Part shown: positions 15,823 through 64,000 of the stretch, piece by piece
Layout: every line of letters starts with the position of its first letter
Position numbering within the stretch: the stretch's first letter is position 1
IMG/VR virus record: IMGVR_UViG_3300042445_002023
Strand: one strand, 5' to 3'
DNA from: a virus
Lineage: Duplodnaviria; Heunggongvirae; Uroviricota; Caudoviricetes
DNA length: 64,000 nucleotides
Notes under the pieces: generated by a model
The model's input: the letters and a program-made list of their open reading frames with translations, nothing else
Databases searched by the model: none
Told to the model about the DNA's origin: nothing
Translations under genes and position numbers: made by a program

Positions 15823-15858
15823 TAACAATCATAAAAAAATAATTATCGTTTTTACAAA

Positions 15859-15885: not shown

Positions 15886-15888
15886 GTT

Positions 15889-17911: not shown

Positions 17912-17939
17912 TATTATTAAAATTTAAAATATAAACGTT

Positions 17940-18161: not shown

Positions 18162-18225
18162 ATTTGGAAATCTCAGCTATTCTTCGTATATTAGCTTTGT
18201 AATAAATGATTAAACTATAAACAAT

Positions 18226-26827: not shown

Positions 26828-27298
26828 ATGGCAAAAAACACACCCCCACAATCAAGTGGCCCTAAGATTATAGGCCAACAGGTGAAGAATCAACTTCAAA
26901 TGAACATCGCTCCTAAATTGGAGACTAAAGATGATGAGGTTGCATTTATCAAATATGATAATCCCAAAATCATAGAACAGGTCGAAAAAGAATATCCAGA
27001 AATGACGGATGAGTTTAAACGACTTATGTTTACTCAATACGAATTGTTTTGTCTAAAACAATCAAACTACGGCCCAAACAATATTTCGGTTGGTACTAAA
27101 TTAGAAACTGCTGAGGATAAGAAATTATCACTAACGGGATTATGGTTTAGAATGAACGATAAAATCCAAAGATTAAAACAATTGGTAGTCCTAAGTAAAG
27201 AGGATTCAGTTGGGGAATCAATAGAAGATACCTTTCAAGACCTATCAGTATATGGAATTATTGCACAAATAGTTTCTAATGGTAAATGGGCAAAATAA
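26828..27298 (+). CDS. hypothetical protein (156 aa)
   Basis: Preceded by the full early motif at 26771-26800. Confidence 0.45.
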   Translation: MAKNTPPQSSGPKIIGQQVKNQLQMNIAPKLETKDDEVAFIKYDNPKIIEQVEKEYPEMTDEFKRLMFTQYELFCLKQSNYGPNNISVGTKLETAEDKKLSLTGLWFRMNDKIQRLKQLVVLSKEDSVGESIEDTFQDLSVYGIIAQIVSNGKWAK

Positions 27299-39823: not shown

Positions 39824-39827
39824 TTTA

Positions 39828-41048: not shown

Positions 41049-41054
41049 AATAAT

Positions 41055-41753
41055 ATGACAGTTATAGAAGCAACATCTCCGGGAGATGCATGGGTAAAGG
41101 TATCTAAACACCTTATTGCCAATGGCGTAAAGGTAGGCGATTTAACCGAAGAGTTAAACGTAATGACAGAAATCACCGAATTTAAATCTGATGAATGGTT
41201 CGACCCACATTTTAGAGAAATTATGGGAGATGATAGAATTGATTACGCAAAGACCGTAACCTTCTTAGAACCACAACCAAAGGTATCGGATAACCCATTC
41301 TTTGTAGCCGAAGAGGGATTGGAATACAAATTCATTAAAGACCACTGGCATGATTCATATTGGGGTAGAATGATTGCATGGCAAGGAACATTTAATCAAG
41401 TAGAAAATGTAATTAAAATCCTTAAAACTGGTAAAGCAGTTAAGAGATGTGAATTGATTATCTTTGACCCGAGCAGAGATGCTAGGAATCCATACTCACA
41501 ACCTTGTATGTTAGGGATTGATATTAAACCTCGTGGTGGTAAAATCTACCTAACATCAATCATTCGTTCAAATAGAGTATCCAAATCAGGTTACGCAGAT
41601 TACACTGCATTGGTTGAGATGGGTAAGTTCTTAGCGAGAGAAAGTGGTATGGAGTTAGGGAAAGTTTCAGTTTTAGCTTGTTCTTGTCATATCGGTAAAA
41701 TGAATGATGAAACGAAAAAGACTCATAAGTTATTAGAAGTATTAAATAAATAA
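41055..41753 (+). CDS. thymidylate-synthase-fold enzyme (232 aa); could be a dUMP/dCMP hydroxymethylase or a TS-like pyrimidine-modifying enzyme
   Basis: A candidate nucleophile segment, SQPCMLGIDIKPRGGKIYLTSIIRSNRVS, is similar to the ThyA active site PCH...YQRSxD; shorter than a canonical ThyA. Confidence 0.45.
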   Translation: MTVIEATSPGDAWVKVSKHLIANGVKVGDLTEELNVMTEITEFKSDEWFDPHFREIMGDDRIDYAKTVTFLEPQPKVSDNPFFVAEEGLEYKFIKDHWHDSYWGRMIAWQGTFNQVENVIKILKTGKAVKRCELIIFDPSRDARNPYSQPCMLGIDIKPRGGKIYLTSIIRSNRVSKSGYADYTALVEMGKFLARESGMELGKVSVLACSCHIGKMNDETKKTHKLLEVLNK

Positions 41754-41754
41754 T

Positions 41755-42177
41755 ATGAAAAAAGAACAACAAGAGTTCGTAGCATTTGAACCACAAAAAG
41801 TAAATAGATTTTTAATTGAATTTAATTCCCCATTTGTTATCCCAACATATGCGGTCCATAAAATGAGTGAATTAAAAGTAGTTTGTGTTTATGATGATGG
41901 GTGGGTAAATTGGGGTGATTTAACAATTGAGATGTATGAAACTTCAGAAATTCCAATTGCTTCAATTATTTGCAAGGGATTAGCAGAAAATAAATCTAAA
42001 CAAACTAATACAATTTCGTTTCAATTATTAGAATTAAATGTAGTAGGAGATATTATTCAACGTTGGGAAATCAATGCAAAGATAAAGGATATAGCATTTG
42101 GAAAATATGATTGGTTAAATGATGAGTTGAAAATGATAGAAATGAATTTAAAAGACGTAGAAGCTGATATAAAATAA
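41755..42177 (+). CDS. hypothetical protein (140 aa)
   Basis: Tightly coupled ORF inside the candidate modification cluster. Confidence 0.45.
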   Translation: MKKEQQEFVAFEPQKVNRFLIEFNSPFVIPTYAVHKMSELKVVCVYDDGWVNWGDLTIEMYETSEIPIASIICKGLAENKSKQTNTISFQLLELNVVGDIIQRWEINAKIKDIAFGKYDWLNDELKMIEMNLKDVEADIK

Positions 42178-42182
42178 ATAAT

Positions 42183-43688
42183 ATGTGTGGAATTGTAGCA
42201 ACGATTGGATATAAAAGAGATGATGTGAATGTAATGCTCGAAGCAATTGAGCATCGTGGTAGAGATAATCGTGGTATTAAAGAATTCCAATATAACGATA
42301 AACATATTATCTTAGGACATAACCGATTATCAATCAACGATACTTCACCATTGGGTAATCAACCTATGGAATGGGATGGAGTTGAATTGGTAGTCAATGG
42401 TGAGATTTGGAACTATCCTCAATTGCGTAAAGAATACGAAGGAAGGGGGTATCACTTTAAATCTAATTCAGATTCAGAAATTATTCTATATCTTTACAAG
42501 GAAGGTGAATTAAAGAGATTAGAGGGTATGTTCTCATTCATTATATACGATAATGATAAGTTGATACTATCGAGGGACTGGGTGGGTAAATTGCCCCTTT
42601 ATATTCACAATACAAACAACTATATCATCGCTAGTGAATTGAAATCCATTACAACACAGGTAAAGAGTTCAGATATTAAGTTTGTACCTAAGAATTCATT
42701 GGTAGAAATTGATTTAAATACTGATACGATTGTAGTTCATAAAGATTATTATTTTCAATTCTCAAACGAACCTACTATACCGGCATCACATGAAGAAGTT
42801 GGTGAAACTACATTTAAGTTATTAGAAACTGCAGTAGATAAAAGATTATTATCAGATGTACCAATTGCTACATCACTAAGTGGTGGGATTGATTCTGCAA
42901 TCATTACCTACCTACTATCACAACGTATACCAAACCTAAAAGCATACACAATTGCATTTGATGAAACCTCAAAGGATTTACAAAAGGCAAGAGTATGTGC
43001 GGAGTATTTAGGAGTGGAGTTAGTTGAAGTATTTGTTCCTAAAGATGAAGAAATAATTAAACAAAGATTTTTAGATTCAATTAGAGTAATCGAATATCCA
43101 TCGACCGTTCAAATGGAAGTGGGTATCCTACAATCCTTTATTGCAGAACAAATGGCAAGAGATGGTATTAAGGTAGCATTTAGTGGTGAGGGTTCTGATG
43201 AATCCTATGGTTCGTATGGTACATTCCGTATGTTCAGTAAGAAACCAGATTGGAGTGATGTTCGTAAAAAGTTATTTGAAAAACAATACTATGGTAACCT
43301 ATTAAGAGGTAATACTATCTTTATGAATTATGGAACAATCGAATTAAGATGCCCATTCTTTGATACCGAATTTTTAAACTATACTACTAATTTAACCGAT
43401 GAATACTTATCTAAAGGAGGTCAATGGAAATTACCACTTGCTAATGCATTCAGAGGTAAACTGCCTGATGAGATTTTAGACCAGGAAAAAAGAGCATTTC
43501 AAAAAGGAACAAATTTTAAACAATACATCGAAGAAATCATTTTAAAAGATGAATCTATTAATTTTAAGAAAAGAAAAAATATGATTCATGTCATTGGTGA
43601 TAACTTTGAAAAAATACACGGGTTCTCTCATAGAAAAATGAAAGGAGAATTAACGTCAAACTCAGGAGGAATATATCAATGGATTTAA
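42183..43688 (+). CDS. asparagine-synthetase-like enzyme: class II glutamine amidotransferase fused to a PP-loop ATP pyrophosphatase
   Basis: N-terminal Met-Cys-Gly (MCGIV) nucleophile and PP-loop motif SLSGGIDSA; 501 aa. Confidence 0.65.
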   Translation: MCGIVATIGYKRDDVNVMLEAIEHRGRDNRGIKEFQYNDKHIILGHNRLSINDTSPLGNQPMEWDGVELVVNGEIWNYPQLRKEYEGRGYHFKSNSDSEIILYLYKEGELKRLEGMFSFIIYDNDKLILSRDWVGKLPLYIHNTNNYIIASELKSITTQVKSSDIKFVPKNSLVEIDLNTDTIVVHKDYYFQFSNEPTIPASHEEVGETTFKLLETAVDKRLLSDVPIATSLSGGIDSAIITYLLSQRIPNLKAYTIAFDETSKDLQKARVCAEYLGVELVEVFVPKDEEIIKQRFLDSIRVIEYPSTVQMEVGILQSFIAEQMARDGIKVAFSGEGSDESYGSYGTFRMFSKKPDWSDVRKKLFEKQYYGNLLRGNTIFMNYGTIELRCPFFDTEFLNYTTNLTDEYLSKGGQWKLPLANAFRGKLPDEILDQEKRAFQKGTNFKQYIEEIILKDESINFKKRKNMIHVIGDNFEKIHGFSHRKMKGELTSNSGGIYQWI

Positions 43689-44518
43689 AACTAAAAGGAT
43701 TAACCGAAGATACCCCATTAGAACTTTATCACATTAAGGGTAGAGAAGTATGGGTAAAGAGGGATGACTTGATGGGCGATGGTATGATATTACCGCCGTG
43801 GGGTAAATTAGCAGCATTATTTGAATTGGTTAAAAAATATATTGATAAATCAAAACCACTGGTTCACCTTTCCGTAGATGGTAGTTGGACAGCATGGGCA
43901 TTGAGTGCAATATGTGAGGAATTGGGAATTGAATTTTATGCAGCACACCCTGATTCTAAAAAGATATCACAGGAATATTTGAGAATGATTAAGGAAATGC
44001 ATCCTAAAACAAACCTATATCCAATTAGACCTAATATGATGCAGATTATGTATAATTCGTTAAAGAAAGATGCAAGAGAAAGGGGATGGCAAATGTTACC
44101 TTACGCTTTTGACCACGATTTCTATAAAGATTATCTTGCAGATAGAATTCAACCCCTTGCCCATTTTGATAATTTAGTAGTATCATCTGGTAGTGGTGTA
44201 ACTCTTGCAGGATTAGCAAGAGGATATTATAGAGAGGAACTTAAAGAGTTTTTTCCACAAGTTAAAAAGAAGATTTGGACAACATGTGTATCATCGGTTA
44301 GTTCAATCAATAAAACACTTAAAAAGAGTGGGATTCCAATTCCCCTAAATATACGAAAATCAGAGTATCTATTTGAGAATAGATTAGATGGTTACGAAAC
44401 CCCATTCCCTTGCAACCAATTTTGGGATGTAAAGCAATGGAAGTGGTTAGAAGAAAACATAGACCAAATCGAAGGAACTATTCTATTCTGGAATATTGGT
44501 GGAATTTACAAATTTTAA
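43679..44518 (+). CDS. PLP-dependent fold-type II enzyme of the ACC deaminase / D-cysteine desulfhydrase family
   Basis: Collinear matches to the D-cysteine desulfhydrase family: TPLELYHIKGREVWVKRDDL (family: TPLEYL...REIFIKRDDV), VVSSGSGVTLAGLA, and LFWNIGG; overlaps the upstream stop by 10 nt. Confidence 0.55.
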   Translation: MDLKLKGLTEDTPLELYHIKGREVWVKRDDLMGDGMILPPWGKLAALFELVKKYIDKSKPLVHLSVDGSWTAWALSAICEELGIEFYAAHPDSKKISQEYLRMIKEMHPKTNLYPIRPNMMQIMYNSLKKDARERGWQMLPYAFDHDFYKDYLADRIQPLAHFDNLVVSSGSGVTLAGLARGYYREELKEFFPQVKKKIWTTCVSSVSSINKTLKKSGIPIPLNIRKSEYLFENRLDGYETPFPCNQFWDVKQWKWLEENIDQIEGTILFWNIGGIYKF

Positions 44519-48532: not shown

Positions 48533-50167
48533 ATGAGTAAACACTATTACGAAAGGTCTAAATTTTCTGAATTCCAATCCAATACAACTTATCATCGGTT
48601 ATTAGAAATGACTGATGATGAGTTTATTAGTTGGGCAAAGTTACTACGCATAGAAGTAACTAAACAATGGGATACCGATGGTGTTCCTCCTGTTATCGGA
48701 AAAGATAAGAATGATATAATCGATTCATTCAAAAAGTTAAAAACAAATGATTGTGATTTCCTTCAAAAAGATTTGACGGGAGATGATAACTCATTGGGTA
48801 TTTTACAAAACTTCAATAAAGATGCATCAGCCGTAAATCAATTCTTTCCAACTATGTTGAAAACCAAAATATCAATCGGTAAATCAGCAGAAGGTGGATT
48901 ATCTATTTATGACCATTTCTCAGACCCGAAATTAGAAGATACCTTCGTTCATATAATGAAGAGGGCGGTTAAGAAAGATTCTATGTATTCGTGGTCACGT
49001 TCTATTGTGAATAAGAAAGATGAGAATGAATTTTGGGATGGTGAAACTGGAATTGAATTTATACAAAAAGTACATGAAGGTAAAGTGTTCGTTGGTAAGT
49101 ACGAAAACATAGGTATTGTTCTTGCGAAAGTAAAGGAGGATACCTTAGATAATTATGGTACTATCAATGAACAATATATTGGATTTGGTAATCTATACCT
49201 AACTGCTGAACAAGTACAAGAATGTAAGGATAAGGGATGGTTATCACATACTCAATTATCTAATATTAAAACGATTGAACCATCTACCACTTTAAAAGAT
49301 GGGACGGTTAAAAAGTTTTTCTATCTGATTCGTTGGTATGATAAGACAATTGGTATCTTTCCAAAGATATTACAAGTGTTTCGTTTAAGTTGTGGTCAAC
49401 CTGCAGTGAATTTCCCTGCACTAACTGCTAAGTGGTTATACGAACATTACACTTCACATATTGAACAATCAGACCCCCTACACATTTATGATTCATCAAG
49501 TGGATGGGGTGGCAGAATATTAGGTGCAATGAGTTCTCGTAAGAAAACCCATTACATTGGAACTGACCCGAACCCTGATAACTTTATACCGGAATTAGGT
49601 ATTTCACGTTATGAGTATGTGGCTGATTTCTATAACAAAAATTGTGTAGATGATTACTCAGAAACATTTGGTAAGTTCTTTGAGGTTCAAAAACAATCAA
49701 ACACTTATGAGTTATTTCAAGATGGCTCGGAGTTGATTCAACATAATCCTAAGTTTCAAAAGTATGCAGGTAAATTGGATTTAGCATTCACATCACCCCC
49801 ATATTTTAATAGAGAACAATATTCACAAGATGAGAATCAATCATTCAAAGCATATGGTGAATATGAGGATTGGAGACAAAACTTCTTACGTCCTACTCTA
49901 ACTACCATTTATGATTATCTTAAAAATGATAGATACATTCTATGGAACATAGCCGATATTAAAATTGGTAAGGATACCTATTATGCATTGGAACAAGATT
50001 CTATTGATATTCTAACCGGATTAGGTTGTGAGTATAAAGGTAGATTGAAGATGTTAATGACCCGAATGGTAGGATTAGACCCATCTAAAACCGGTATTAA
50101 AAACGCAGTTAAACACGATGGTAAAGCGTATAAGTTTGAACCCATTTTTGTATTTTACAAACCATAA
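48533..50167 (+). CDS. SPPY-motif methyltransferase-like protein, paralog 3, with an extra N-terminal extension of about 300 aa
   Basis: SSSGWGGRILGAM...HYIGTDP and AFTSPPYFN; C-terminal block YILWNIADI aligns with LAVNIADV in paralogs 1 and 2. Confidence 0.5.
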   Translation: MSKHYYERSKFSEFQSNTTYHRLLEMTDDEFISWAKLLRIEVTKQWDTDGVPPVIGKDKNDIIDSFKKLKTNDCDFLQKDLTGDDNSLGILQNFNKDASAVNQFFPTMLKTKISIGKSAEGGLSIYDHFSDPKLEDTFVHIMKRAVKKDSMYSWSRSIVNKKDENEFWDGETGIEFIQKVHEGKVFVGKYENIGIVLAKVKEDTLDNYGTINEQYIGFGNLYLTAEQVQECKDKGWLSHTQLSNIKTIEPSTTLKDGTVKKFFYLIRWYDKTIGIFPKILQVFRLSCGQPAVNFPALTAKWLYEHYTSHIEQSDPLHIYDSSSGWGGRILGAMSSRKKTHYIGTDPNPDNFIPELGISRYEYVADFYNKNCVDDYSETFGKFFEVQKQSNTYELFQDGSELIQHNPKFQKYAGKLDLAFTSPPYFNREQYSQDENQSFKAYGEYEDWRQNFLRPTLTTIYDYLKNDRYILWNIADIKIGKDTYYALEQDSIDILTGLGCEYKGRLKMLMTRMVGLDPSKTGIKNAVKHDGKAYKFEPIFVFYKP

Positions 50168-53671: not shown

Positions 53672-53980
53672 ATGTCAACAGAAGTACAATTAGCAAAACC
53701 ATTAGGAGATAGAGTCCTAATTAAAGTAGAGTCAGGAGAAAAAAAGATTGGTGGAATCATCATACCAGACACTGTTCAAGATGGTGATAACAAATTTGGT
53801 ATAATTGTTTCAGTAGGGAATGGTATTTATACCCAAAATGGAGCTAAAATTCCAATGGAAGTATCAGTAGGTGATAAAGTATTATTACCGCATGGTGGAA
53901 TGAATATTCAAAAAATTAAATTAGATGATACTGAATATTTCTTATGTAGAGAAATGGATTTATTAATGGTTATAAAATAA
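53672..53980 (+). CDS. groES: co-chaperonin GroES (Cpn10) homolog
   Basis: LAKPLGDRVLIKVESGEKKIGGIIIPDTVQD...GIIVSVGNG matches the GroES consensus along its length. Confidence 0.7.
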   Translation: MSTEVQLAKPLGDRVLIKVESGEKKIGGIIIPDTVQDGDNKFGIIVSVGNGIYTQNGAKIPMEVSVGDKVLLPHGGMNIQKIKLDDTEYFLCREMDLLMVIK

Positions 53981-54253: not shown

Positions 54254-54702
54254 TGGCGAAATCACTATTCGACCATATAAAGGCAATTACAACCGAACAA
54301 GACCCAAAATATTGGGATAAGTTGGATGATGCTGATAAAAAGACTTGGTCTAATTATATGGTACATCGTTTCATCTCAATGAATCCAGATTGGATATCTG
54401 TTATTTCAGAGATACAACCTTATACTGAAATATTAGAACCCAAACAATTATATCTAGCACTAATTGGTATTATCCCAAAAGGGAAATATTACCTTAGATA
54501 TGTAAAAGGTAAGAAAGAAGATACCTACGAAAAATGGTTAGTTGAATTGGTTGCAAAGGATTATCAATGTTCTACAAAACAGGCTGAAGAGTATTTAGAA
54601 ATCTTATATTCAACAAAAGAAGGTAGGGAACATATTAAGTATACCTGTGAGAGATATGCAATCGAACCAAAAGAAATTACAAAATTAAAATTAAAAATAT
54701 AG
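54253..54702 (+). CDS. hypothetical protein (149 aa)
   Basis: ORF only. Confidence 0.4.
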   Translation: MAKSLFDHIKAITTEQDPKYWDKLDDADKKTWSNYMVHRFISMNPDWISVISEIQPYTEILEPKQLYLALIGIIPKGKYYLRYVKGKKEDTYEKWLVELVAKDYQCSTKQAEEYLEILYSTKEGREHIKYTCERYAIEPKEITKLKLKI

Positions 54703-54733
54703 TTGGTAATATCGAATAATTTTCGTATCTTTA
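54703..54733 (+). promoter_or_regulatory. early/middle promoter-like motif: TTGGTAATATCGAATAATTTTCGTATCTTTA
   Basis: Same motif family; upstream of the PD-(D/E)XK nuclease. Confidence 0.45.
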
Positions 54734-54752: not shown

Positions 54753-55610
54753 ATGGCAAGAGTAAGTTATAGTCAATATGGAATGTGGACAAGTTGTCAA
54801 CAACAATTCAAACTAAGTTATATAGATAAATTAGGTGAATCATCTGCAAACATCCATACAATCTTTGGTTCGGCAATGCACGAAACCATTCAACATTTTC
54901 TTTCCGTTATGTATGGGGTATCCAAAAAACAGGCACTTCTATTAGATGTAGAGGGTATGTTAAAGGAAAAGTTAGTAGAACATTTTACTACTGAAAAGGC
55001 TAAAATGACTGAAGGTACTCCATGTACTCAAATTGAATTAGAGGAATTCTTTGGCGATGGTAGACAAATTCTACATTATTTTAAAACTAAGTTAGATAAA
55101 CTTTATACTAAAAGTGGGTTTGAATTAGTTTCAATTGAGTTACCCCTAAACGCAGAAGTAAGACCGGGGGTTAATTTTGTTGGGTTTATTGATATTGTAT
55201 TGAAGGAAGTATCAAGTGGTAAAATTATTATCATTGATTTAAAAACATCAACACGAGGTTGGAATCAATATCAAAAAGCAGATAAGGTTAAAACATCTCA
55301 GATGCTTCTATATAAGAAGTTTTATTCAGAAAAGTATAATGTTCCATTAGATAAGATTGAGGTTGAATACCAAATCCTAAAAAGAAAGGTATCAGATACG
55401 ACTGAATTCACAATACCACGTATATCTAAGTTTGTTCCAGCCAATGGAAAACCCTCAGTCAATGCAGCTTGGAAAGGATTTATGGAGTTTGTTGACTCCG
55501 TATATAATGAAGAAGGTGTAGTAAAACAAGTTGATTTCCCTACCAATAAATCAAAATCTTGTGATTGGTGTGAATTCAAAACCCGAAAAATTTGTCCTAT
55601 TTGGTCATAA
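54753..55610 (+). CDS. PD-(D/E)XK nuclease, Cas4/RecB-like, with a C-terminal Cys cluster
   Basis: FVGFIDIVL...IIIDLKTS core and the C-terminal cluster CDWCEFKTRKICP. Confidence 0.55.
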   Translation: MARVSYSQYGMWTSCQQQFKLSYIDKLGESSANIHTIFGSAMHETIQHFLSVMYGVSKKQALLLDVEGMLKEKLVEHFTTEKAKMTEGTPCTQIELEEFFGDGRQILHYFKTKLDKLYTKSGFELVSIELPLNAEVRPGVNFVGFIDIVLKEVSSGKIIIIDLKTSTRGWNQYQKADKVKTSQMLLYKKFYSEKYNVPLDKIEVEYQILKRKVSDTTEFTIPRISKFVPANGKPSVNAAWKGFMEFVDSVYNEEGVVKQVDFPTNKSKSCDWCEFKTRKICPIWS

Positions 55611-55627
55611 ATTTTATCTTTTTTATA

Positions 55628-55660
55628 TTTGTATATATTTATATACATAACAAAAAAAAG
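55628..55660 (+). promoter_or_regulatory. late-type promoter-like motif: TTTGTATATATTTATATACATAACAAAAAAAAG
   Basis: Same family as 6083; precedes the glycosyltransferase cluster. Confidence 0.5.
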
Positions 55661-55667
55661 GAGAGTT

Positions 55668-55862
55668 ATGACAAATACAAAACTGACTACGGTCAAAATC
55701 GTAAAAGATGTTTATTCAAAATTCAAACAATTATCGTTTGAATCAAACATCACACTACAAAAATTAGTTAATCGTTCTTTAAACAAATACATTGAAGACG
55801 AAACATTTAGAACTCAGATTAATGAGTATTCAGAATTACACGCAAGTGGTTCACAATTTTAA
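55668..55862 (+). CDS. hypothetical small protein (64 aa)
   Basis: AAGGAG site; preceded by the late-type motif. Confidence 0.4.
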   Translation: MTNTKLTTVKIVKDVYSKFKQLSFESNITLQKLVNRSLNKYIEDETFRTQINEYSELHASGSQF

Positions 55863-55879
55863 TTTTTAATTTTAAGTAA

Positions 55880-57274
55880 ATGACAGAAGTAAGAAAGAAA
55901 AAGAAAATTCTTTTATTATCCGATGATTTCAGAATGTCCTCTGGTATAGCAACTGTATCAAAAGAATTAATTTTTGGTACATTGGATAAGTACGATTGGA
56001 TACAATTAGGTGCAGCAGTAGAACATCCTGAAAAAGGTAGAGAAATTGATTTAGGTGATGATGCTAGAAAAATTAGTGGTGTATTTGATGCTTCAGTTAA
56101 AATCGTTCCGTGGAGTGGTTATGGTGATGCTGATATTTTACGCGAGTTAATAATGAGACATCAACCTGATGCAATCCTACACTTTACCGACCCTCGTTAT
56201 TGGAGATGGTTGTATGATATGGAAGCAGAATTACGTGAAAACGTACCTATTTTCTTTTATCATATTTGGGATGATTTACCAGACCCTCAATATAATAGAG
56301 ATTATTATGAGAGTTGTGATTGGTTAGGATGTATTTCTAAACAAACATATGGTATTGTACGAAGAGTAGGACAAAGAACTGATTCACCAACATTCAAACC
56401 CCTTGAAGATTGGCAAGTATCATATGTACCGCATGGTATTAACTCAAATACCTTCAAACCTGCTGAAGTACCTGATGAATTCCGTAAAAGAGTATTAGGT
56501 GATAAAGATTATAAATTTGTCCTATTTTGGATGAATCGTAATATCAAACGAAAACAACCATCCGATGTCATTTGGGCATATAAACGCTTTGTAGATTCTT
56601 TACCAATTGAAGATAGAGATAAGACTTGCCTAATTATGCATACCCAAGCGGTTGACCAAAACGGAACGGATTTGTTTAAAGTAAAGGAAACCATTTGTCC
56701 TGATTACGAAGTTAAGTTCTCAGAAACTAGAATTTCACAAGAGGAATTAAATTGGTATTATAACTTATCAGATGTTACTATTAACATTGCAGGTAACGAA
56801 GGATTTGGATTAACAACTGCAGAATCAGTAATGGCCGGAACTCCTATTATTGTAAACGTTACGGGTGGATTACAAGACCAATGTGCATTTACATTAGATG
56901 GTAAAGAATTAACGGCAGAAGATTATGTGAAAATCGGTTCGGTACATGATTGGAGAGTATGGGCAGATAAGTTAGGACATGGAGAATGGGTTAACCCAGT
57001 ATTCAGTAAAGTTCAAACACTTGTAGGTTCAGTTCCAACGCCATATATTATTGATGATAAGGTTGATATTTACGAAGTTGCTGATGCAATGAAGTATTGG
57101 TATGATATTCCTAAGAAAGACCGTAAAAAGAGAGGTTTAGCGGGCAGGGAATGGATGTTAAACGAAGGTGGATTAAATCATACAAATATGTGTAAAACTC
57201 TTTCTGATGGTATGGAAACAGCTTTCCAAAATTGGAGACCTAAAGATAGATTTGGATTATATAAATTAAAATAA
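55880..57274 (+). CDS. glycosyltransferase, GT-B fold, family 4-like
   Basis: E-x7-E region NEGFGLTTAESVMAGTPIIV. Confidence 0.6.
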   Translation: MTEVRKKKKILLLSDDFRMSSGIATVSKELIFGTLDKYDWIQLGAAVEHPEKGREIDLGDDARKISGVFDASVKIVPWSGYGDADILRELIMRHQPDAILHFTDPRYWRWLYDMEAELRENVPIFFYHIWDDLPDPQYNRDYYESCDWLGCISKQTYGIVRRVGQRTDSPTFKPLEDWQVSYVPHGINSNTFKPAEVPDEFRKRVLGDKDYKFVLFWMNRNIKRKQPSDVIWAYKRFVDSLPIEDRDKTCLIMHTQAVDQNGTDLFKVKETICPDYEVKFSETRISQEELNWYYNLSDVTINIAGNEGFGLTTAESVMAGTPIIVNVTGGLQDQCAFTLDGKELTAEDYVKIGSVHDWRVWADKLGHGEWVNPVFSKVQTLVGSVPTPYIIDDKVDIYEVADAMKYWYDIPKKDRKKRGLAGREWMLNEGGLNHTNMCKTLSDGMETAFQNWRPKDRFGLYKLK

Positions 57275-57275
57275 T

Positions 57276-57701
57276 ATGAAAGTTAATATAAAAAGGTTAC
57301 AAGAAAATGCAATACTCCCATTTTACGCAAAAGAAAGTGATGCGGGCATGGATTTGGTAGCAACATCAATTAAAGAGAATACTACATTTCAAATAACATA
57401 CGGATTGGGTATAGCATTAGAAATACCAGATGGGTTTATGGGTTTAATTTTCCCGCGTTCATCTATTAGAAATACGGAACTTATTTTAAGCAATTCAGTT
57501 GGAGTAGTTGATGCTGGATATAGAGGAGAACTTCAAGCAACATTCGTTAAATCTAATGGACTTGATTCCCTAGCATATAAAGTGGGAGATAGAGTGTGTC
57601 AACTTATAATCATACCACACCCAATCGTAGAATGGACAGAAGTAAATGAATTAAATAATACCGAAAGAGGAGCCGGAGGTTTCGGTTCAACAGGAAAATA
57701 A
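57276..57701 (+). CDS. dut: dUTP pyrophosphatase (dUTPase)
   Basis: Contains the five conserved dUTPase sequence blocks (AGMDLVA, PRSSI, GVVDAGYRGE, RGAGGFGSTGK). Confidence 0.75.
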   Translation: MKVNIKRLQENAILPFYAKESDAGMDLVATSIKENTTFQITYGLGIALEIPDGFMGLIFPRSSIRNTELILSNSVGVVDAGYRGELQATFVKSNGLDSLAYKVGDRVCQLIIIPHPIVEWTEVNELNNTERGAGGFGSTGK

Positions 57702-57711
57702 AAAATAAAAT

Positions 57712-58998
57712 ATGAGCAAACCATTATTAGTATTTCAAGCACCAGTTTTTACAAGGAGTGGATATGGTGACCATAGTAGAGATTTACTTCAGAGTTTATT
57801 TGATTTAGATAAATATGATGTGAAAGTAGTACCAACTCGTTGGGGTTCTACACCACAAAATCAACTCGATGGTGTGAGTGAATTTAGTAAAAAAGTATTG
57901 AGTAGTGTCATTACAACGTTAGATAGAGAACCGGATGTATATATTCAGGTTACAGTTGCTAATGAATTTAAAAAAATGGGTAAATACAATATTGGTATTA
58001 CCGCAGGAGTTGAAACTACTTTAGCACCAAAGGATTTTATTGATGGTTGTAATAGAATGGATTTAGTTTTAGTACCATCTAACTTTACAAAAGAGGTATT
58101 ACAAAAAACTTCGTTTTCTGAAGTGGATAAAGCATCAGGTCAAAAAATTAGAGATATAAGTGTTCAAACTCCAATTGAAGTTCTTTTCGAAGGAGTTGAT
58201 TTAGATATTTTTTTAAATAGAACTAATCAAGAAACTGATGTTCTTATTAATACTGAAAAATTAGATAAAAAAATTGAAACTGATTTTAATTTCTTATTTG
58301 TAGGTCATTGGTTGAGTGGAGATTTAGGACAAGACAGAAAAGATGTAGGAATGTTAATTAAAACATTTTGTACTATTTTTAAATCCGTTCCAAAAAATAA
58401 ACAACCCGGTTTGATATTAAAAACATCTATGGCTGGATTTAGTATTATCGATAGAGAAGAGATTAGTGAAAAAATTAAAACCATAACAAAAGAATATGGT
58501 GAAAACTGTCCACCTATTTATTTATTATTTGGAGATATGAAATCAAGCGAAATAGCAAATTTATATCATCATCCAAAAGTAAAGGCTATGTTATCATTTA
58601 CTAAGGGTGAAGGGTATGGTAGACCACTTGCAGAGTTTGCTACAACGGGTAAACCTATTATAGTTTCAAAATGGAGTGGATTGACTGATTTTTTACCTGA
58701 AACTAATACTATTTATTTGGATGGAGAATTAACAAATGTCCACCCATCAGCAGCAAACCAATTCTTAATGGCGGAATCACAATGGTTCTCCGTAAATTAT
58801 TCAACTGCAGCACAAAAAATAATGGATGTATTTAAAAATTATAATAAATATTTAGATAGTTCAAAGGGATTACAATCAAATATTAAAAATAATTTTTCAT
58901 TAACAAAAATGACAGAAGTATTTGGCAATTTACTTAACAAATATGTTAAAGTTACAACTCGTGTTGAATTAAAATTACCTAAACTAAACAAATTATAA
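57712..58998 (+). CDS. glycosyltransferase, GT-B fold, family 4-like
   Basis: GEGYGRPLAEFATTGKPIIVS. Confidence 0.6.
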   Translation: MSKPLLVFQAPVFTRSGYGDHSRDLLQSLFDLDKYDVKVVPTRWGSTPQNQLDGVSEFSKKVLSSVITTLDREPDVYIQVTVANEFKKMGKYNIGITAGVETTLAPKDFIDGCNRMDLVLVPSNFTKEVLQKTSFSEVDKASGQKIRDISVQTPIEVLFEGVDLDIFLNRTNQETDVLINTEKLDKKIETDFNFLFVGHWLSGDLGQDRKDVGMLIKTFCTIFKSVPKNKQPGLILKTSMAGFSIIDREEISEKIKTITKEYGENCPPIYLLFGDMKSSEIANLYHHPKVKAMLSFTKGEGYGRPLAEFATTGKPIIVSKWSGLTDFLPETNTIYLDGELTNVHPSAANQFLMAESQWFSVNYSTAAQKIMDVFKNYNKYLDSSKGLQSNIKNNFSLTKMTEVFGNLLNKYVKVTTRVELKLPKLNKL

Positions 58999-58999
58999 A

Positions 59000-59521
59000 A
59001 TGCAATTCTATACTAATCAGTATAAAGAAATATTAAAACCGGAACGAAGAATTAGTAAATCACTAATTTTACCTAGAAACGTTTATCGTATTTCTACATA
59101 TGTTGATGGTGTACCACCAACAAAAGTTGGGATGGAAAGTAGATATGTATTTGTAATTGGTAAAATTGATAACAAAATTCATTGTCTTTTATTGAATCAC
59201 GTCTTGCCTGCTAATTTTATTACATTTTTAAATAAACTTAGAGATAAAACAAAACCAATTGAAAAAGACCAACCCTTAAGCGAATTACTTAAACTAATGG
59301 CTAAAGATGGACAACAATTATTTGAAACACATGTAAAAAGAAATAGAACAATCTATTCACATAAATTAGACAATTATAGAACTTACTTTTTAGATAAAAT
59401 TCAAAATGTTTGGGAAATTAGATTTGAAGATGGATTTTTACAAGAAATATTTAAAGAAGGAAATACTGCTTCAGATAGACGAGAAGTTATTAAAAAAGAA
59501 ATAAACGAAAAAGATGGCTAG
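59000..59521 (+). CDS. hypothetical protein (173 aa)
   Basis: ORF inside the glycosylation cluster. Confidence 0.4.
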   Translation: MQFYTNQYKEILKPERRISKSLILPRNVYRISTYVDGVPPTKVGMESRYVFVIGKIDNKIHCLLLNHVLPANFITFLNKLRDKTKPIEKDQPLSELLKLMAKDGQQLFETHVKRNRTIYSHKLDNYRTYFLDKIQNVWEIRFEDGFLQEIFKEGNTASDRREVIKKEINEKDG

Positions 59522-60140
59522 TATAAGTTACGCAGTTACAGTTTGTAATGAAATTGATGAGTTGACACAACTTCTTAATTTTTTACAATTACATATTAGA
59601 GAAGAAGATGAAATTGTTATTCAATATGATGAAGCATCGGTTACTAAAGATGTAACGGATTATCTTAATTTAATCAATGTAATACATTCCAATCACAAAG
59701 TGGTTGGATTTTCATTAAATAACGATTTTGCATCATTCAAAAATAATCTTAAATCACATTGTTCAAAGGATTATATTTTTCAAATAGATGCTGATGAGAT
59801 TCCACATGAATATCTAATAGAAATATTAGGGGAAGTGTTGGATAGTAATAATGTAGATATTGTATTTGTCCCGCGAATCAATACGGTCGAAGGTTTAACT
59901 CAATCTCATATTCAAAAGTGGGGTTGGAATGTAAACGAAACCCAATGGGTAAACTTTCCTGATTATCAGACAAGAATATATAAGAATACGGATGATGTTA
60001 CATGGATGGGGAAAGTACATGAAAGAATTACTGGATACAATACATTCTCAAATTTTCCAGCAGAAGAACAATTTTGTTTATATCATCATAAACAAATAGA
60101 AAGACAGGAAAAACAAAACTCTTTCTATGCAACCATCTAA
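59514..60140 (+). CDS. GT-A (family 2-like) glycosyltransferase
   Basis: DxD-type motif QIDADEIP; N-terminal Rossmann-like beta strand (YAVTVCNE). Confidence 0.45.
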   Translation: MASISYAVTVCNEIDELTQLLNFLQLHIREEDEIVIQYDEASVTKDVTDYLNLINVIHSNHKVVGFSLNNDFASFKNNLKSHCSKDYIFQIDADEIPHEYLIEILGEVLDSNNVDIVFVPRINTVEGLTQSHIQKWGWNVNETQWVNFPDYQTRIYKNTDDVTWMGKVHERITGYNTFSNFPAEEQFCLYHHKQIERQEKQNSFYATI

Positions 60141-61014
60141 AATAACATTCGTATATAACCACGCTCCAAATGAAACGTGGTCAACTCCTTTATCATTATT
60201 AAATGAATTCCAAAAGAGAGGATGGGAAACTGAAATAGTTTCAATAACTGCAACTGATGATTCTCAATTACAATTATGGATTCAACAAGATATTCCAACT
60301 GATATTGTATTATTTATGGATTGGGGTAGAATTGATTCTAAGTGGTTAGATAAATCATTAAAACCAAATACATTTTGGATACAAGAAAGTGGAGATGACC
60401 CACAAAACTTTGTAAGAAACTATCCAAAAGCAAGTAGGTTTCATTATACAATAACACCGGATAAAGTATCGGCAGAAGAATATAGAAAAAGAGGTATAAC
60501 TGCTGATTGGGTTTCCCATTGGGCAGATACGGCAGTTCAATTTCCAATGAATGAAAGACCTCAATATGTTGCGGTTACAAGTAGAGGAAGAGGTGGTTCT
60601 GAATTTTTAGATTACCTTACGGAATGGGGTGAGGGTCTAATTGGAAACCGAAACGGAATGAATGCAATAGAACATACTGAATTTTTGAATAGTGGTTTAA
60701 TGGTTATTCAGAATAGTAGATGGGGAGAAATAACTCGTAGATTATTTGAAGGAATGGCATGTGGTAAGATGGTTATAACTGATAGATTAAGAGAATCAAC
60801 TGGTCTTTCTGAAATGTTTATAGAGGGTGAAGAAATAGTTTATTATGATAATATGTTAGATTGTATTGAAAAGATAAATTATTATAATGAAAATAGAGAT
60901 GAACTTAATCGTATTGCCTTAAACGGAATGAATAAGGTTTTAAATAACCATACTCAAATACAACGAGTAGATAAGTTAATAACGGAATTTAATAATTTTA
61001 AAAAAATTAAATAA
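60127..61014 (+). CDS. glycosyltransferase with a GT-B C-terminal domain
   Basis: RLFEGMACGKMVITD resembles the GT1/GT4 C-terminal motif. Confidence 0.4.
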   Translation: MQPSKITFVYNHAPNETWSTPLSLLNEFQKRGWETEIVSITATDDSQLQLWIQQDIPTDIVLFMDWGRIDSKWLDKSLKPNTFWIQESGDDPQNFVRNYPKASRFHYTITPDKVSAEEYRKRGITADWVSHWADTAVQFPMNERPQYVAVTSRGRGGSEFLDYLTEWGEGLIGNRNGMNAIEHTEFLNSGLMVIQNSRWGEITRRLFEGMACGKMVITDRLRESTGLSEMFIEGEEIVYYDNMLDCIEKINYYNENRDELNRIALNGMNKVLNNHTQIQRVDKLITEFNNFKKIK

Positions 61015-61238
61015 TGGCATTATTAAAATTAGATTGTCAATCAAGCGTTAAAGCACAAGGAAAATTTGTCACTCAAATAATACATTTTGTAGGTGGAGAA
61101 AAACGAACTTTTGAAAATATAGAATCAGATTATATTAAGCAAGGTCAGTTTACTAAACTTATGACAAGTGATGGTAGAATGATTTTAGTAAACGATAAGA
61201 ACGTATTATGTATAGAAGTATTCCAACAACCAGAATAA
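61014..61238 (+). CDS. hypothetical protein (74 aa)
   Basis: ORF only. Confidence 0.35.
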   Translation: MALLKLDCQSSVKAQGKFVTQIIHFVGGEKRTFENIESDYIKQGQFTKLMTSDGRMILVNDKNVLCIEVFQQPE

Positions 61239-61242
61239 AAAT

Positions 61243-61833
61243 ATGAATTATTTAAATAGATGGGATATTATTAATATCTTAATTAAAAAAAACAATTATA
61301 AATCTTATTTAGAAGTTGGAACACAAGACCCCAATTCAAATTTCAATAAAATAGAAATTGAAAATAAAGTATCGGTAGACCCATTTCCAAAAGGAGAAGT
61401 AACATTTGTTGGTACATCTGATGAATACTTTCAATCAATATTAGAAGATGTAAAATTTGATATTATTTTTATAGATGGATTACATCACGATGACCAAGTA
61501 TTAAGAGATATTGAAAACTCTTTAACTCATTTATCGGATAGTGGAATTATTGTATGTCATGATTGTTTACCAACAACCGAACATATGCAAGAAAGAAACG
61601 ACCATGGCGGTATATGGTTGGGTGATGTTTGGAAAGCAATTGCAGAATTGAGAGTTGAAAGAATTGATTTAGACATTAAAGTAATTGATTCCGATTTGGG
61701 GTGTGGATTGATTAAACCAGGAACAAACATACCATATATGACTAATGAAAATTATTTAACATATAGTTATTATAATTTACACAAATGGCAACTTATGAAT
61801 ATAATATCAGTAGAGGATTTCTTAAAATTATAA
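61243..61833 (+). CDS. class I SAM-dependent methyltransferase, TylF/MycF-like (sugar O-methyltransferase family)
   Basis: IIFIDGLHHDDQVLRDIEN ... GIIVCHDC, matching the Methyltransf_24-like signature. Confidence 0.5.
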   Translation: MNYLNRWDIINILIKKNNYKSYLEVGTQDPNSNFNKIEIENKVSVDPFPKGEVTFVGTSDEYFQSILEDVKFDIIFIDGLHHDDQVLRDIENSLTHLSDSGIIVCHDCLPTTEHMQERNDHGGIWLGDVWKAIAELRVERIDLDIKVIDSDLGCGLIKPGTNIPYMTNENYLTYSYYNLHKWQLMNIISVEDFLKL

Positions 61834-61836
61834 TAT

Positions 61837-62832
61837 ATGAAAGTTTTAATTACAGGAGTAGCAGGATTATTGGGTAGTAGATTAGCAGATTGGTTAGTAG
61901 AAACTCATCCAGAAATAGAAGTAGTAGGTATCGATGATTTGAGTGGTGGTTATAGAGAAAACATAAACGAAAAAGTTGAATTTTGGCAAATGAATTTGGT
62001 AACACATCCAATTGAAAATTGCTTTGAAGTTCATAAATTTGATTATGTATTTCATTTTGCAGCATATGCAGCAGAAGGGTTATCGCCATTCATTAGACAA
62101 TACAATTATGAAAATAATTTAGTAGCAACTGCAAGAATAGTTAATCAATGTATTAAGCACGATGTTAAAAGATTGGTATTTACCTCAACTCTTGCAGTAT
62201 ACGGACATGGTTATGGTGGAATATTTGATGAAAACCAAATACCAAAACCAATCGACCCATATGGAGTTGCAAAGTATGGTTGTGAAATGGATATACAAAT
62301 TGCAGGTGAACAACATGGATTAGATTGGTGTATTATCAGACCTCATAATGTATATGGTATTAAACAAAATATTTGGGACAAATATCGTAATGTATTGGGG
62401 ATTTGGATGTACCAACATTTGAATGGAGAACCAATGACTATATTTGGAGATGGTGAACAAACTAGAGCATTTAGTTATATAGATGATATCGTTGAACCAC
62501 TATGGAACTCAGCAATAAGACCAGAAGCATCCAAAGAAATCATTAATTTGGGTGGAATTGAAGAGTGGAGTATCAACGATGCAAATAAAATTTTGAAAAA
62601 AATAATTGGTGGTGGGGAAGTGGTTTATAAAGAGGGTAGACATGAAGTTAAACATTCTATACCTACGTTTCAAAAATCAATTGATATCTTAGGATTTGAA
62701 CATAAAACTCAGTTTGAAAATGGATTGAATGATATGTGGAAATGGGCAAAAGAACAACCTAAAAGAGAAAGATTTGTCTGGTCGTCCTATGAGTTAGATA
62801 ATGGAATTTATTCCTTTTGGAAAACAAAATAA
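61837..62832 (+). CDS. NAD-dependent sugar-nucleotide epimerase/dehydratase (SDR family)
   Basis: Rossmann motif VLITGVAGLLGSRL and catalytic YxxxK (YGVAKYGCE). Confidence 0.65.
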   Translation: MKVLITGVAGLLGSRLADWLVETHPEIEVVGIDDLSGGYRENINEKVEFWQMNLVTHPIENCFEVHKFDYVFHFAAYAAEGLSPFIRQYNYENNLVATARIVNQCIKHDVKRLVFTSTLAVYGHGYGGIFDENQIPKPIDPYGVAKYGCEMDIQIAGEQHGLDWCIIRPHNVYGIKQNIWDKYRNVLGIWMYQHLNGEPMTIFGDGEQTRAFSYIDDIVEPLWNSAIRPEASKEIINLGGIEEWSINDANKILKKIIGGGEVVYKEGRHEVKHSIPTFQKSIDILGFEHKTQFENGLNDMWKWAKEQPKRERFVWSSYELDNGIYSFWKTK

Positions 62833-62850
62833 TAAATAAAAAACCCAATT

Positions 62851-63495
62851 ATGAAATATACTGCAGTTATACCAACAATGTTAAAATCACCGAGATTGAA
62901 AAAATTGGTTGAGGATTTACAAACTCATGAGTTAGTAGATGAAATCATAATTATCGATAATTCTGGAAATTTAGAACCTAGTTTAGAACCACATCCAAAA
63001 CAAAAATATATTTGTGAAGGTAAAAATATCGGATGTAATCCGGCATGGAATAAGGGTGTAAAGTTAGCTTCAAATGAGTTGATTGCTATTTGTAATGATG
63101 ATATAAATTTTAATCCAATTATTTTAGAAGTATTGGATAATGAAATATTGGATACACATGGTATCATCGGTATGGGAGAAGGAAATTTTAATGAAAATTT
63201 TAACTATGATGGGAATCCATATTTAGAAGAATGGTATTCCGGTGTAAATGATAGTGGATGGGGTAGTTTGATGTTTTTAAAGAAATCAATGTGGGTGCAT
63301 ATACCTGATGATTTAATAGTATGGTATGGTGATAACTTTATAAAAGAAATAAATCCTGTAAAAAAATCAATTTTAAGAGGATTTAGAGTAGAAACCGAAA
63401 TGAGTACTACTTGTGATTTACCAGAACTAAGTGAATTGAAAAAACAAGACGGAATAAATTGGATTAATCATTTGTCAGCAAAATTCGGAAATTAA
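62851..63495 (+). CDS. GT-A (family 2-like) glycosyltransferase
   Basis: IIIIDNSGN ... CNDDINF, a DxD-like motif. Confidence 0.45.
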   Translation: MKYTAVIPTMLKSPRLKKLVEDLQTHELVDEIIIIDNSGNLEPSLEPHPKQKYICEGKNIGCNPAWNKGVKLASNELIAICNDDINFNPIILEVLDNEILDTHGIIGMGEGNFNENFNYDGNPYLEEWYSGVNDSGWGSLMFLKKSMWVHIPDDLIVWYGDNFIKEINPVKKSILRGFRVETEMSTTCDLPELSELKKQDGINWINHLSAKFGN

Positions 63496-63506
63496 AAATA
63501 TAAGTT

Positions 63507-64000
63507 ATGAAAAAATTACCAATTAGTATAGGGATATTAGCCTGGAATAGTGGGCAAGTCCTTGTAGATACACTAACTACCTATTACGAAAATGGGCTAT
63601 TCGATATGGTAAACGATGTTACGATTCTATTTCAAGAAGTAACTCCACAAGATATTGAAATTGCAACTCATTTTGGTTTAGATTTTATAGGTTTACAAAA
63701 GAATATAGGAATTGGTCAAGCGTTTATTAGATTGACAGAATCTGCTCAAAGTGATAATATTTTGGTATTAGAACACGATTGGAATCTGATAGAGAATAAA
63801 GAAACTACCTATGAAAGATTAGAATCTGGACTAGAATTATTAGGTGGTAGTGTTGATGTTGTAAGATATAGACATAGAGCACAACCAGGCAATCCACATT
63901 TTTCATTTAGAAATATAGGAAAAGAATTAACTTATTATGATGATGAAATTGAATGTACATCACCACATCTTTTAGATTCATTACATTGGTTAGACCCTAA
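63507..64000 (+). CDS. partial ORF (N-terminus) of a probable glycosyltransferase; continues past the window
   Basis: ISIGILAWNSGQVLVDTL resembles a GT-A N-terminus; the ORF is still open at the window end. Confidence 0.35.
   Translation, partial: MKKLPISIGILAWNSGQVLVDTLTTYYENGLFDMVNDVTILFQEVTPQDIEIATHFGLDFIGLQKNIGIGQAFIRLTESAQSDNILVLEHDWNLIENKETTYERLESGLELLGGSVDVVRYRHRAQPGNPHFSFRNIGKELTYYDDEIECTSPHLLDSLHWLDP

Follow-up and report, generated by a model that had tools for sequence, protein, structure and literature searches.

Phage DNA-glycosylation clusters, which include the T-even α/β-glucosyltransferases, the arabinosyl-5-hydroxycytosine systems of DLP3 and RB69, that of RL38J1, and the 5-hydroxymethylcytosine (5hmC) glycans of Pyle et al., form the first comparison set for the locus described here. 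Trisaccharides are the largest DNA glycans in this literature (PMC13326640; bioRxiv 10.1101/2023.12.21.572611). The glycosyltransferase sets of large cyanomyophages and "moraphages" are discussed, in the accessible sections of the reports on them, as host-surface, DNA, or virion modification. Virion glycosylation of mycobacteriophages was reportedly described by Freeman et al. in 2023. Here, we describe a phage glycosylation operon that begins at position 55634 of a 64,000-nucleotide stretch of Caudoviricetes DNA (IMG/VR record IMGVR_UViG_3300042445_002023). This whole stretch, hereafter the window, is 64 kb of a source contig of at least 212 kb. The operon is real and ordinary-looking, it is unusually large and widespread, and its architecture is well defined.

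Layout and conserved core of the operon

Six glycosyltransferases are encoded between 55.6 and 64 kb: two GT4-like enzymes, two GT2 enzymes, one Glyco_trans_1_2 protein, and one GT-A-fold enzyme (p246), which is truncated by the window end. The same region encodes a class-I methyltransferase, a short-chain dehydrogenase/reductase (SDR), a dUTPase, and small proteins, and it lies behind a conserved promoter-like motif. From 55634, the order is s64, GT4a, dUTPase, GT4b, h173, GT2a, Glyco_trans_1_2, s74, methyltransferase, SDR, GT2b, and p246, and neighboring genes abut or overlap. All of the open reading frames (ORFs) listed by an earlier reading of the DNA made without database searches (the sequence-only reading) are present at their positions on the + strand. 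Its claim of a contiguous cluster that makes and transfers modified sugars is upheld and can be extended. The genes of the cluster continue beyond 64000. JGI contig L004, which is from the same phage and 100% identical over the shared genes, reaches 4.4 kb beyond 64000. It adds the remainder of p246, a short DegT-like protein (41 bits), a WbqC-family protein (96 bits), a second methyltransferase, a NeuD/PglB/VioB-type sugar N-acetyltransferase (156 bits), a weakly GH43-like protein, and a PhyH-type dioxygenase. The whole unit runs from 55634 to at least window-equivalent 68376 (12.7 kb) and has ~19 genes. Neither terminator- nor sigma-70-like sites inside the cluster exceed the shuffle expectation. 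The sequence is most simply read as a single transcription unit that starts at 55634.

The products of the operon and its extension are soluble. Across the 19 proteins, the maximum 19-residue hydropathy on the Kyte–Doolittle scale is at most 1.53, and a membrane segment was scored as a hydrophobic 19-mer above 1.6. No Pfam family of a priming phosphoglycosyl transferase, flippase, polymerase, ligase, or GtrA/GtrB/Gtr(type) protein was found among them. Most of the transferases are acidic, with isoelectric points (pI) of 4.7–5.6.

Two GT4-like genes had been predicted, and both are borne out. GT4a (55880–57274), a predicted retaining GT-B glycosyltransferase with Pfam and PHROG matches, scores just over the cut-offs with Glycos_transf_1 (27.8 bits; cut-off 26.4) and GT4-conflict (27.9 bits). 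In its E-x7-E motif (NEGFGLTTAE), E307 and E315 are invariant in the alignment, even in the 26%-identical homologue of Rhodothermus phage RM378. The closest NCBIfam models are MshA, monoglucosyl-diacylglycerol synthase, TreT, and BshA, all matched far under their cut-offs. GT4b (57712–58998), a second predicted GT-B glycosyltransferase, matches PHROG 2170 "glycosyltransferase" over its full length (62 bits). Its Glycos_transf_1 score of 20.2 bits is under the cut-off, and an E-x7-E motif is readable (GEGYGRPLAE). Both proteins carry the GT4-type GT-B domain and the E-x7-E motif, and retaining transfer is predicted for both. The third core enzyme, GT2a (59514–60140; Glycos_transf_2, 31 bits), is a GT-A glycosyltransferase with a DAD motif and is kept at 33–50% identity in distant loci. 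With GT2b (62851–63495; Glycos_transf_2, 35 bits), it makes up the pair of GT-A-like genes that had been proposed.

The first gene of the operon, s64 (55668–55862), encodes a 64-aa basic protein (pI 9.05) without a Pfam match. Its identity is 68–100% in IMG/VR relatives and 34–50% in Flavobacterium phage immuto and in 9 of 29 loci from metagenome-assembled genomes (MAGs). The protein is conceivably a ribbon–helix–helix-like regulator. Outside the operon, a PD-(D/E)XK (Cas4/RecB-like) nuclease is encoded at 54753–55610 (PDDEXK_1, 73.8 bits). Nearly every related locus that extends far enough has this gene ahead of GT4a, in most cases as its direct neighbor, with identities as low as 25–31%. GT4b always directly follows GT4a, except that a dUTPase gene is inserted between them in one clade. 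GT4b is 45% identical to its counterpart in immuto, 43% to that in Microcystis phage Mel-JY01, and 22% to RM378 p014 over 413 aa (E 4e-4), and its C-terminal part is weakly similar to an Arthrobacter phage glycosyltransferase located at ~16 kb of a 59-kb genome. The order nuclease, s64, GT4a, GT4b, small protein, and GT2a is conserved down to 31–35% GT4a identity and was seen solely on phage or MAG contigs. In four related loci (designated L with a number; L011, L015, L016, and L022), a ~1.2 kb extra segment lies between the genes for clamp-loader A and the PD-(D/E)XK nuclease; the window (54675–54709) is without it.

A megablast search of the region against GenBank phages gave no match. At the protein level, GT4a is 44% identical to its homologue in immuto, 46–49% in Mel-JY01, 35% in a 484-kb uncultured phage, and 26% in RM378. 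The glycosyltransferase core is carried by two cultured phages, immuto and Mel-JY01, and RM378 has a bare GT4a–GT4b pair between an exonuclease-like gene and the gene for ribonucleotide reductase (RNR). Public metagenomes hold at least 8000 GT4a proteins, all at E ≤1e-5, and 478 loci were found in IMG/VR on contigs of up to 288 kb. When a single genome of each bacterial and archaeal species was scanned, GT4a occurred solely on MAG contigs and in no isolate genome. Since the taxonomic labels of these MAGs are inconsistent and isolate genomes are without it, the copies look like mis-binned phage DNA. The hosts are probably Gram-negative and Bacteroidota-like. A literature search returned no paper on Mel-JY01 and no data on the DNA or virion chemistry of immuto, and one on phage virion O-glycosylation returned nothing relevant. 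In another relative, L139, a 1092-aa protein with CarboxypepD_reg and outer-membrane β-barrel (TonB-dependent-receptor-like) domains is encoded at 1002–4280, inside the phage contig.

The promoter-like element is a tandem of TATATTTGTATA and TATATTTATATA on the + strand (55624–55645), 22 nt upstream of the s64 gene, with TATATTTATATA located at 55634. Its core, TATTTATATA, occurs nine times in the window against 1.67 expected, a count reached by none of 100 shuffles. Eight of the nine copies are on the + strand (2672, 6082/6090, 15866, 22597, 23961, 29034, and 55636), all of them intergenic and 23–86 nt upstream of an ATG. They head seven apparent transcription units: those of the sheath, the baseplate hub, a nuclease, a single-stranded DNA-binding protein (SSB), the glycosyltransferase operon, and two unknowns. 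Upstream of the s64 homologue, the element is kept with 0–1 mismatch in 84 of 84 loci. Phage immuto has the identical 12-mer before its s64 homologue, and copies of the 10-nt core also precede the block leading into its baseplate genes. The sequence-only reading had called the motif a late-type promoter. The motif is a real and conserved phage promoter-like element, yet structural genes are not its only targets: it also precedes the genes for a gp32-like SSB (29120) and a nuclease (22628). Its use as a marker of late or structural genes was rejected on this ground, and since it also precedes these two genes it cannot favor a virion or cell-surface target.

The window is a phage segment of low GC content (~32%) with every gene on the + strand. 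Tail genes, including those for the sheath and a baseplate-hub-like protein, occupy 1–20 kb. The replication/nucleotide-metabolism module (27–55.6 kb) encodes the gp32-like SSB, a UvsX-like recombinase, a 5′–3′ exonuclease, a DnaB-like helicase, a DNA methylase, RNR, PolB, clamp-loader subunits, thioredoxin, GroES, and the PD-(D/E)XK nuclease. The GroES co-chaperonin (53672–53980) scores 82 bits; GroEL is encoded by the relatives L139 and immuto. An SPFH/Band-7 protein (78 bits) is encoded at 19947–20858.

Insertions, variable genes, and the strain-specific cassette

Two genes within the core are insertions. The trimeric-type dUTPase between GT4a and GT4b (57276–57701) matches PF00692 with 77 bits over profile positions 2–129 of 129 and PHROG 135 with 159 bits. 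Its position had been described correctly. As an integral part of the cluster, however, it fails: a dUTPase occupies this slot only among relatives with at least ~76% GT4a identity, Mel-JY01 encodes one elsewhere, and the slot in immuto is without it. By this distribution, the dUTPase is a clade-specific insertion and was rejected as a pathway member for that reason. Downstream of GT4b, h173 (59000–59521) is a 173-aa basic protein (pI 9.5) with a small β-barrel fold that resembles a WYL-like or gp2-like fold, a type known in nucleic-acid-binding proteins. It may bind nucleic acid, and it may stand outside the sugar pathway. An hhalign comparison with T4 gp2 was not significant, which makes the "DNA end protector" resemblance a fold-level lead. 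Profiles of h173 and p246 retrieved nothing but noise from the PDB sequences. Both h173 and p246 are restricted to the window's own lineage. The ~147-aa Zn-ribbon protein that occupies the h173 slot in other lineages was considered as a counterpart and proved not to be homologous.

Past GT2a, gene content varies between relatives, among which the Glyco_trans_1_2 gene, s74, and the genes for the methyltransferase, SDR, and GT2b are each present or absent; depending on the locus, 730 to 5138 nt separate GT2a and p246. The Glyco_trans_1_2 glycosyltransferase (60127–61014; PF13524, 84.5 bits), which we take to be CgeB-type, is the protein for which a GT-B C-terminal domain had been proposed, in agreement with this match. 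The 74-aa protein s74 (61014–61238) has only a sub-threshold Pfam match and is 60% identical to immuto gp94, likewise placed before a methyltransferase. Nucleotide comparison of relatives delimits variable slot 1, with the methyltransferase, SDR, and GT2b genes, to 61233–63502. The ~96% nucleotide identity to relatives ends at 61232 and returns at 63494–63503, and because similarity to such close relatives is lost and regained at its edges, we read the segment as a strain-specific swappable cassette. In L015, the cassette is cleanly deleted, with s74 joined straight to p246; in L011, L016, and L022, it is replaced by unrelated DNA of 1.3–2.3 kb.

The first cassette gene (61243–61833) encodes a class-I S-adenosylmethionine-dependent methyltransferase. 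Methyltransf_24 is its only Pfam match (PF13578, 44 bits, residues 55–108), and neither a TylF nor an NCBIfam match was found, so that the earlier label of a macrocin-O-methyltransferase or TylF-like enzyme does not hold. The PHROG family carries the label "DNA methyltransferase"; the protein is probably a sugar O-methyltransferase. The NAD-dependent SDR (61837–62832) matches Epimerase with 139 bits, and its best NCBIfam match is GalE (104 bits, under its cut-off). NDP-sugar (nucleoside diphosphate sugar) 4,6-dehydratases carry TDE or TSE beside Y-x3-K. The SDR reads GVAGLLG, STLAVYG, and YGVAK, and because STLAVYG replaces TDE/TSE and GalE is the best model, it looks most like an NDP-hexose 4-epimerase, not a dehydratase. 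Of the proposed "epimerase/dehydratase", the first half is therefore the likelier, and the deoxy-sugar product that had been predicted is unsupported, as no 4,6-dehydratase was identified within the window. GT2b is missing from most relatives compared. Slot 1 is closed by p246, of which the N-terminal 164 of 246 residues are encoded in the window (63507–64000). It is conserved within the lineage and has a GT-A Rossmann-like fold with an acidic DxD-type motif, in keeping with the partial glycosyltransferase predicted there. A second variable slot lies after p246.

Cassettes of related phages differ in their chemistry. That of immuto encodes WecE-type aminotransferases and a "pilin glycosylation" acetyltransferase; L139 has Methyltransf_24 and Methyltransf_21; L161 has a PseB-like dehydratase and an FkbM methyltransferase; and L165 has GT9 with heptose-pathway-like genes. 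The cassette of L140 encodes a GT29 sialyltransferase-like protein, a CMP-sugar synthetase, FdtA, DegT, and a C-methyltransferase, and in L149 a CMP-sugar synthetase adjoins an MptE-like (PF01973) protein. PF01973 is the domain of the Maf flagellin nonulosonic-acid transferases. The 518-aa GT29 (sialyltransferase-family) protein of L140 and its CMP-sugar synthetase are encoded at 14949–16505 and 17669–18331, and the CMP-sugar synthetase/MptE-like pair of L149 at 14434–15782. Nonulosonic-acid transfer encoded by bacteriophages looks unusual.

Acceptor of the glycans

Gene content, operon layout, protein solubility, core conservation, and cassette variability are shown above; in the pathway that we propose from them, the order of the enzymes, the sugars, and the acceptor are inferred. 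The region would act as one operon and encode a self-contained pathway that glycosylates in the cytoplasm without a lipid carrier, with transcription presumably starting from the conserved phage promoter at 55634. GT4a and GT4b, both predicted to be retaining, and GT2a would build the inner sugars, which do not vary, on an acceptor made by the phage. The variable enzymes would then build outer sugars from host NDP-sugars and attach them; these would comprise the Glyco_trans_1_2 transferase, GT2b, p246, one or two methyltransferases, and the epimerase-like SDR, together with the DegT-like protein, WbqC, the NeuD/PglB-type N-acetyltransferase, and the dioxygenase encoded past the window. Exchange of cassettes by recombination would give different glycans on otherwise near-identical phages. 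Capsid or tail would thereby receive a coat of variable glycans, comparable to the glycosylation of mycobacteriophage virions, of giant-virus capsids or fibrils, and of flagellin or spore crusts.

Virion structural proteins are the acceptor that we favor, tentatively and at somewhat less than even likelihood. They are among the targets named by the sequence-only reading. The pathway is soluble and autonomous, and the cassette chemistry of the relatives is typical of protein or surface glycans. Six glycosyltransferases are more than a trisaccharide, the largest DNA glycan in the papers cited, would call for, and the acidity of most transferases is also counted for a virion acceptor, as are the presence of the core in immuto, which has a canonical ThyA only, and the weak likeness of the GT4b C-terminal part to the Arthrobacter phage enzyme. 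Strain-level cassette swapping resembles, by analogy, the O-antigen diversification of an exposed structure. The Glyco_trans_1_2, SpsA-like, and MptE-like families, all present here, serve spore-crust and flagellin glycosylation. Several points weigh on the other side. No glycan is directly evidenced on a virion protein. In every lineage, the cluster ends the replication/nucleotide-metabolism module, away from capsid and tail genes; in the window, the sheath and baseplate genes are ~50 kb upstream, whereas mycobacteriophage virion glycosyltransferases flank structural genes. The motif, being common to the SSB and nuclease genes and to the sheath and baseplate genes, does not establish late co-expression with structural genes. 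Inside the operon, h173 has a fold known from nucleic-acid-binding proteins, and the proven DNA arabinosyl- and glucosyltransferases are GT4-like GT-B enzymes too (PMC13326640).

These last points bear on DNA hypermodification, which is possible, with a lower probability than a virion acceptor. GT4a, GT4b, and the later transferases would put a variable oligosaccharide on a pyrimidine hydroxylated by a thymidylate synthase (TS)-fold enzyme. The glycan would shield the genome from host nucleases, and cassette swaps would reflect an arms race with modification-dependent restriction. The sequence-only reading had linked the cluster to the TS-fold protein at 41055–41753. In favor of this link, the catalytic Cys of the protein is retained, the residue that corresponds to ThyA N177 is Asp (cytosine type), conservation is 78–100% in 47 of 49 loci (the two outliers are at 45–47%), and in this lineage its gene shares contigs with GT4a. 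Position 169 is Arg, neither Asp nor the Asn of 5-hydroxycytosine synthases, and its matches are weak (Pfam 19.5 bits, under the cut-off; best solved structure the CMP hydroxymethylase MilA, E 5e-4). The link is weakened by distance: the operon and the TS-fold gene are 14 kb apart with ~17 ORFs of ≥100 aa between them, outside a clustering range of ≤10 genes/10 kb. Moreover, the TS-fold gene is flanked by candidate tailoring enzymes of its own. The module at 39720–44518 encodes a methylase-like protein (39720–41048), the TS-fold protein, a 140-aa protein, an asparagine-synthase/glutamine-amidotransferase homologue (42183–43688, 147 bits), and a weak PALP (PLP-enzyme) match (43679–44518), and by its gene content is a candidate DNA-hypermodification module.

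The gene neighborhood is more favorable to a DNA acceptor, since the operon adjoins the replication module and the PD-(D/E)XK nuclease gene in every lineage. The location of the RM378 GT4 pair between the exonuclease-like and RNR genes is counted in the same sense, as are the fold of h173 and the GT9 and heptose-pathway-like genes of L165. The DNA glycosyltransferases of DLP3, RB69, and RL38J1 are GT4-like (BshA-, MshA-, and PimA-like), and these phages encode NDP-sugar synthesis (PMC13326640); in surveys, GT-B enzymes turn up in the vicinity of ThyS, polymerase, and clamp genes, and DNA carrying heptose is described (bioRxiv 10.1101/2023.12.21.572611). The cultured carriers argue the opposite way. 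Phages immuto and Mel-JY01 have the glycosyltransferase core, yet neither gave a tblastn match to the TS-fold enzyme. The ThyA of immuto (423 aa with large insertions) is canonical, with N177 and D169 kept, and the annotation of 0–112 kb of its 160 kb contains no hydroxymethylase. Its evident modification is 7-deazaguanine, which offers no hydroxyl handle, and a full set of FolE, QueD, QueE, QueC, QueF, and DpdA is encoded (L143 18607–36971). Six transferases with amino-sugar, methyl-sugar, and nonulosonic-acid chemistry go beyond any DNA glycan in the papers cited, and the acidity of most transferases also speaks against DNA. The scanned ORFs of ≥100 aa in the window include neither a dCTPase nor a dNMP kinase (about a dozen were unscanned, and the window is 64 of at least 212 kb).

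In its most specific form, which we consider rather doubtful, this reading has the divergent TS-fold enzyme supply a modified cytosine, on which the operon would assemble a strain-variable oligosaccharide of as many as about six residues. Besides amino sugars, such a glycan would contain N-acetylated and O-methylated ones, and in sister lineages also nonulosonic acids. The invariably adjacent PD-(D/E)XK nuclease could then spare modified DNA, giving a phage-borne restriction/modification-like pair. Independently of the operon, a 156-aa protein with DUF1599, "Nucleotide modification associated domain 1" (27 bits), is encoded at 26828–27298; by its domain it is a hint of modified phage DNA and is counted among the points for a DNA acceptor. 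N6/N4 DNA methylase homology was found at 33767–34873, 39720–41048, and 48533–50167, where one protein is a clear match (127 bits) and the other two (442 and 544 aa) have marginal N6_N4_Mtase matches in their C-terminal parts only.

Remodeling of the host envelope or of small molecules is unlikely. The soluble transferases would act at the inner membrane face on lipid-linked intermediates of lipopolysaccharide (LPS) or capsule or on glycolipids, or would make a soluble glycoside, and the effect would be a changed cell surface (superinfection exclusion, grazing, and adsorption) or a changed host physiology. The peripheral GT4 enzymes WaaG and PimA need no membrane segment, and the nearest NCBIfam models of GT4a, far under their cut-offs, are small-molecule or lipid glycosyltransferases; the comparable LPS/cell-wall gene sets of large cyanomyophages are usually so interpreted. 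Host surface polysaccharide, also named as a target by the sequence-only reading, is weakened by the lack of membrane machinery: a complete surface-polysaccharide pathway was rejected, since the 19 proteins include no priming transferase, flippase, polymerase, ligase, or Gtr-type membrane protein. The restriction of GT4a to phage and MAG contigs speaks against a recently borrowed host pathway, and the sharing of one inner core by phages that are binned with widely differing host phyla would be expected of an acceptor made by the phage more than of varied host envelopes. Of the three acceptor candidates, host surface polysaccharide is the weakest. Finally, a mosaic of independent auxiliary genes at an insertion-tolerant site, without a single pathway, is very improbable: the dUTPase and h173 as unrelated insertions, the highly variable cassette content, and the 1.2-kb insertion between clamp-loader and nuclease genes in close relatives would suit it, but the core gene order is held to 31% identity, abutting or overlapping genes stand behind one conserved promoter, and the variable genes are almost all for sugar-nucleotide or glycosyl-transfer enzymes in every sampled lineage.

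Because the GT4a family has at least 8000 members, on phage or MAG contigs only, the glycosylated target would be a common trait of large aquatic phages, whose hosts are probably Bacteroidota and other Gram-negatives. If the acceptor is the virion, phage virion glycosylation would extend beyond actinobacteriophages, and phage particles would have O-antigen-like "serotypes" that affect adsorption, aggregation, grazing, and stability. If it is DNA, the known chemistry of DNA hypermodification would be greatly enlarged, with effects on the sequencing and cloning of such genomes, and an oligosaccharide on cytosine would far exceed every known natural DNA modification in complexity and would be widespread among abundant phages of aquatic habitats. 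Either acceptor would be notable, and the cultured carriers immuto and Mel-JY01 make the question directly testable.

Comparison with known systems

Like the phage DNA-glycosylation clusters, the operon combines several GT-B (GT4-like) and GT-A transferases with phage sugar-nucleotide enzymes, is sited among replication/nucleotide-metabolism genes, and varies between related phages, and the genome encodes elsewhere a TS homologue with the cytosine-type Asp. In contrast to them, the operon is not clustered with that homologue, its core is also found in a phage with canonical ThyA only, and six transferases with amino, methyl, and nonulosonic chemistry replace the systems for at most trisaccharides of hexose, N-acetylhexosamine (HexNAc), heptose, and arabinose. 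No sequence match to the Straboviridae transferases was found. Because the operon is not clustered with a base-hydroxylating enzyme, it cannot be classed with the DNA-glycosylation kind.

With the virion glycosylation of mycobacteriophages and other actinobacteriophages, it shares soluble, cytoplasmic phage glycosyltransferases and methyltransferases and a phage-made acceptor. Those systems consist of two to four genes flanking capsid or tail genes, whereas here at least 15 genes follow the replication module, and the hosts are probably Gram-negative. As it is not adjacent to structural genes, the operon cannot be classed with the actinophage virion kind; nor can it be classed as a surface-polysaccharide pathway, since membrane components are missing.

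Many glycosyltransferases and NDP-sugar epimerases are also encoded in the "LPS/cell-wall" clusters of large cyanomyophages (P-SSM2, S-SCSM1, and S-SCSM2R) and in moraphages, which have four core glycosyltransferase orthogroups; the accessible sections of these reports do not mention the nuclease/GT4a/GT4b/GT2a array or a strain-level swappable cassette. Giant-virus glycosylation of the chlorovirus major capsid protein and of Mimivirus fibrils uses an epimerase/dehydratase, an aminotransferase, an N-acetyltransferase, an O-methyltransferase, and soluble transferases without a lipid carrier. The gene content of these clusters differs between lineages, as it does here. Unlike them, the present operon belongs to a bacterial virus, and the likeness is one of generic GT-A/GT-B and SDR folds, not of specific orthology. 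Although the acceptors are unrelated and the likeness is at the domain level, the operon also shares with Maf-dependent flagellin glycosylation and the Bacillus spore-crust cge/sps systems the use of soluble transferases, which in those systems decorate a protein before its export or assembly.

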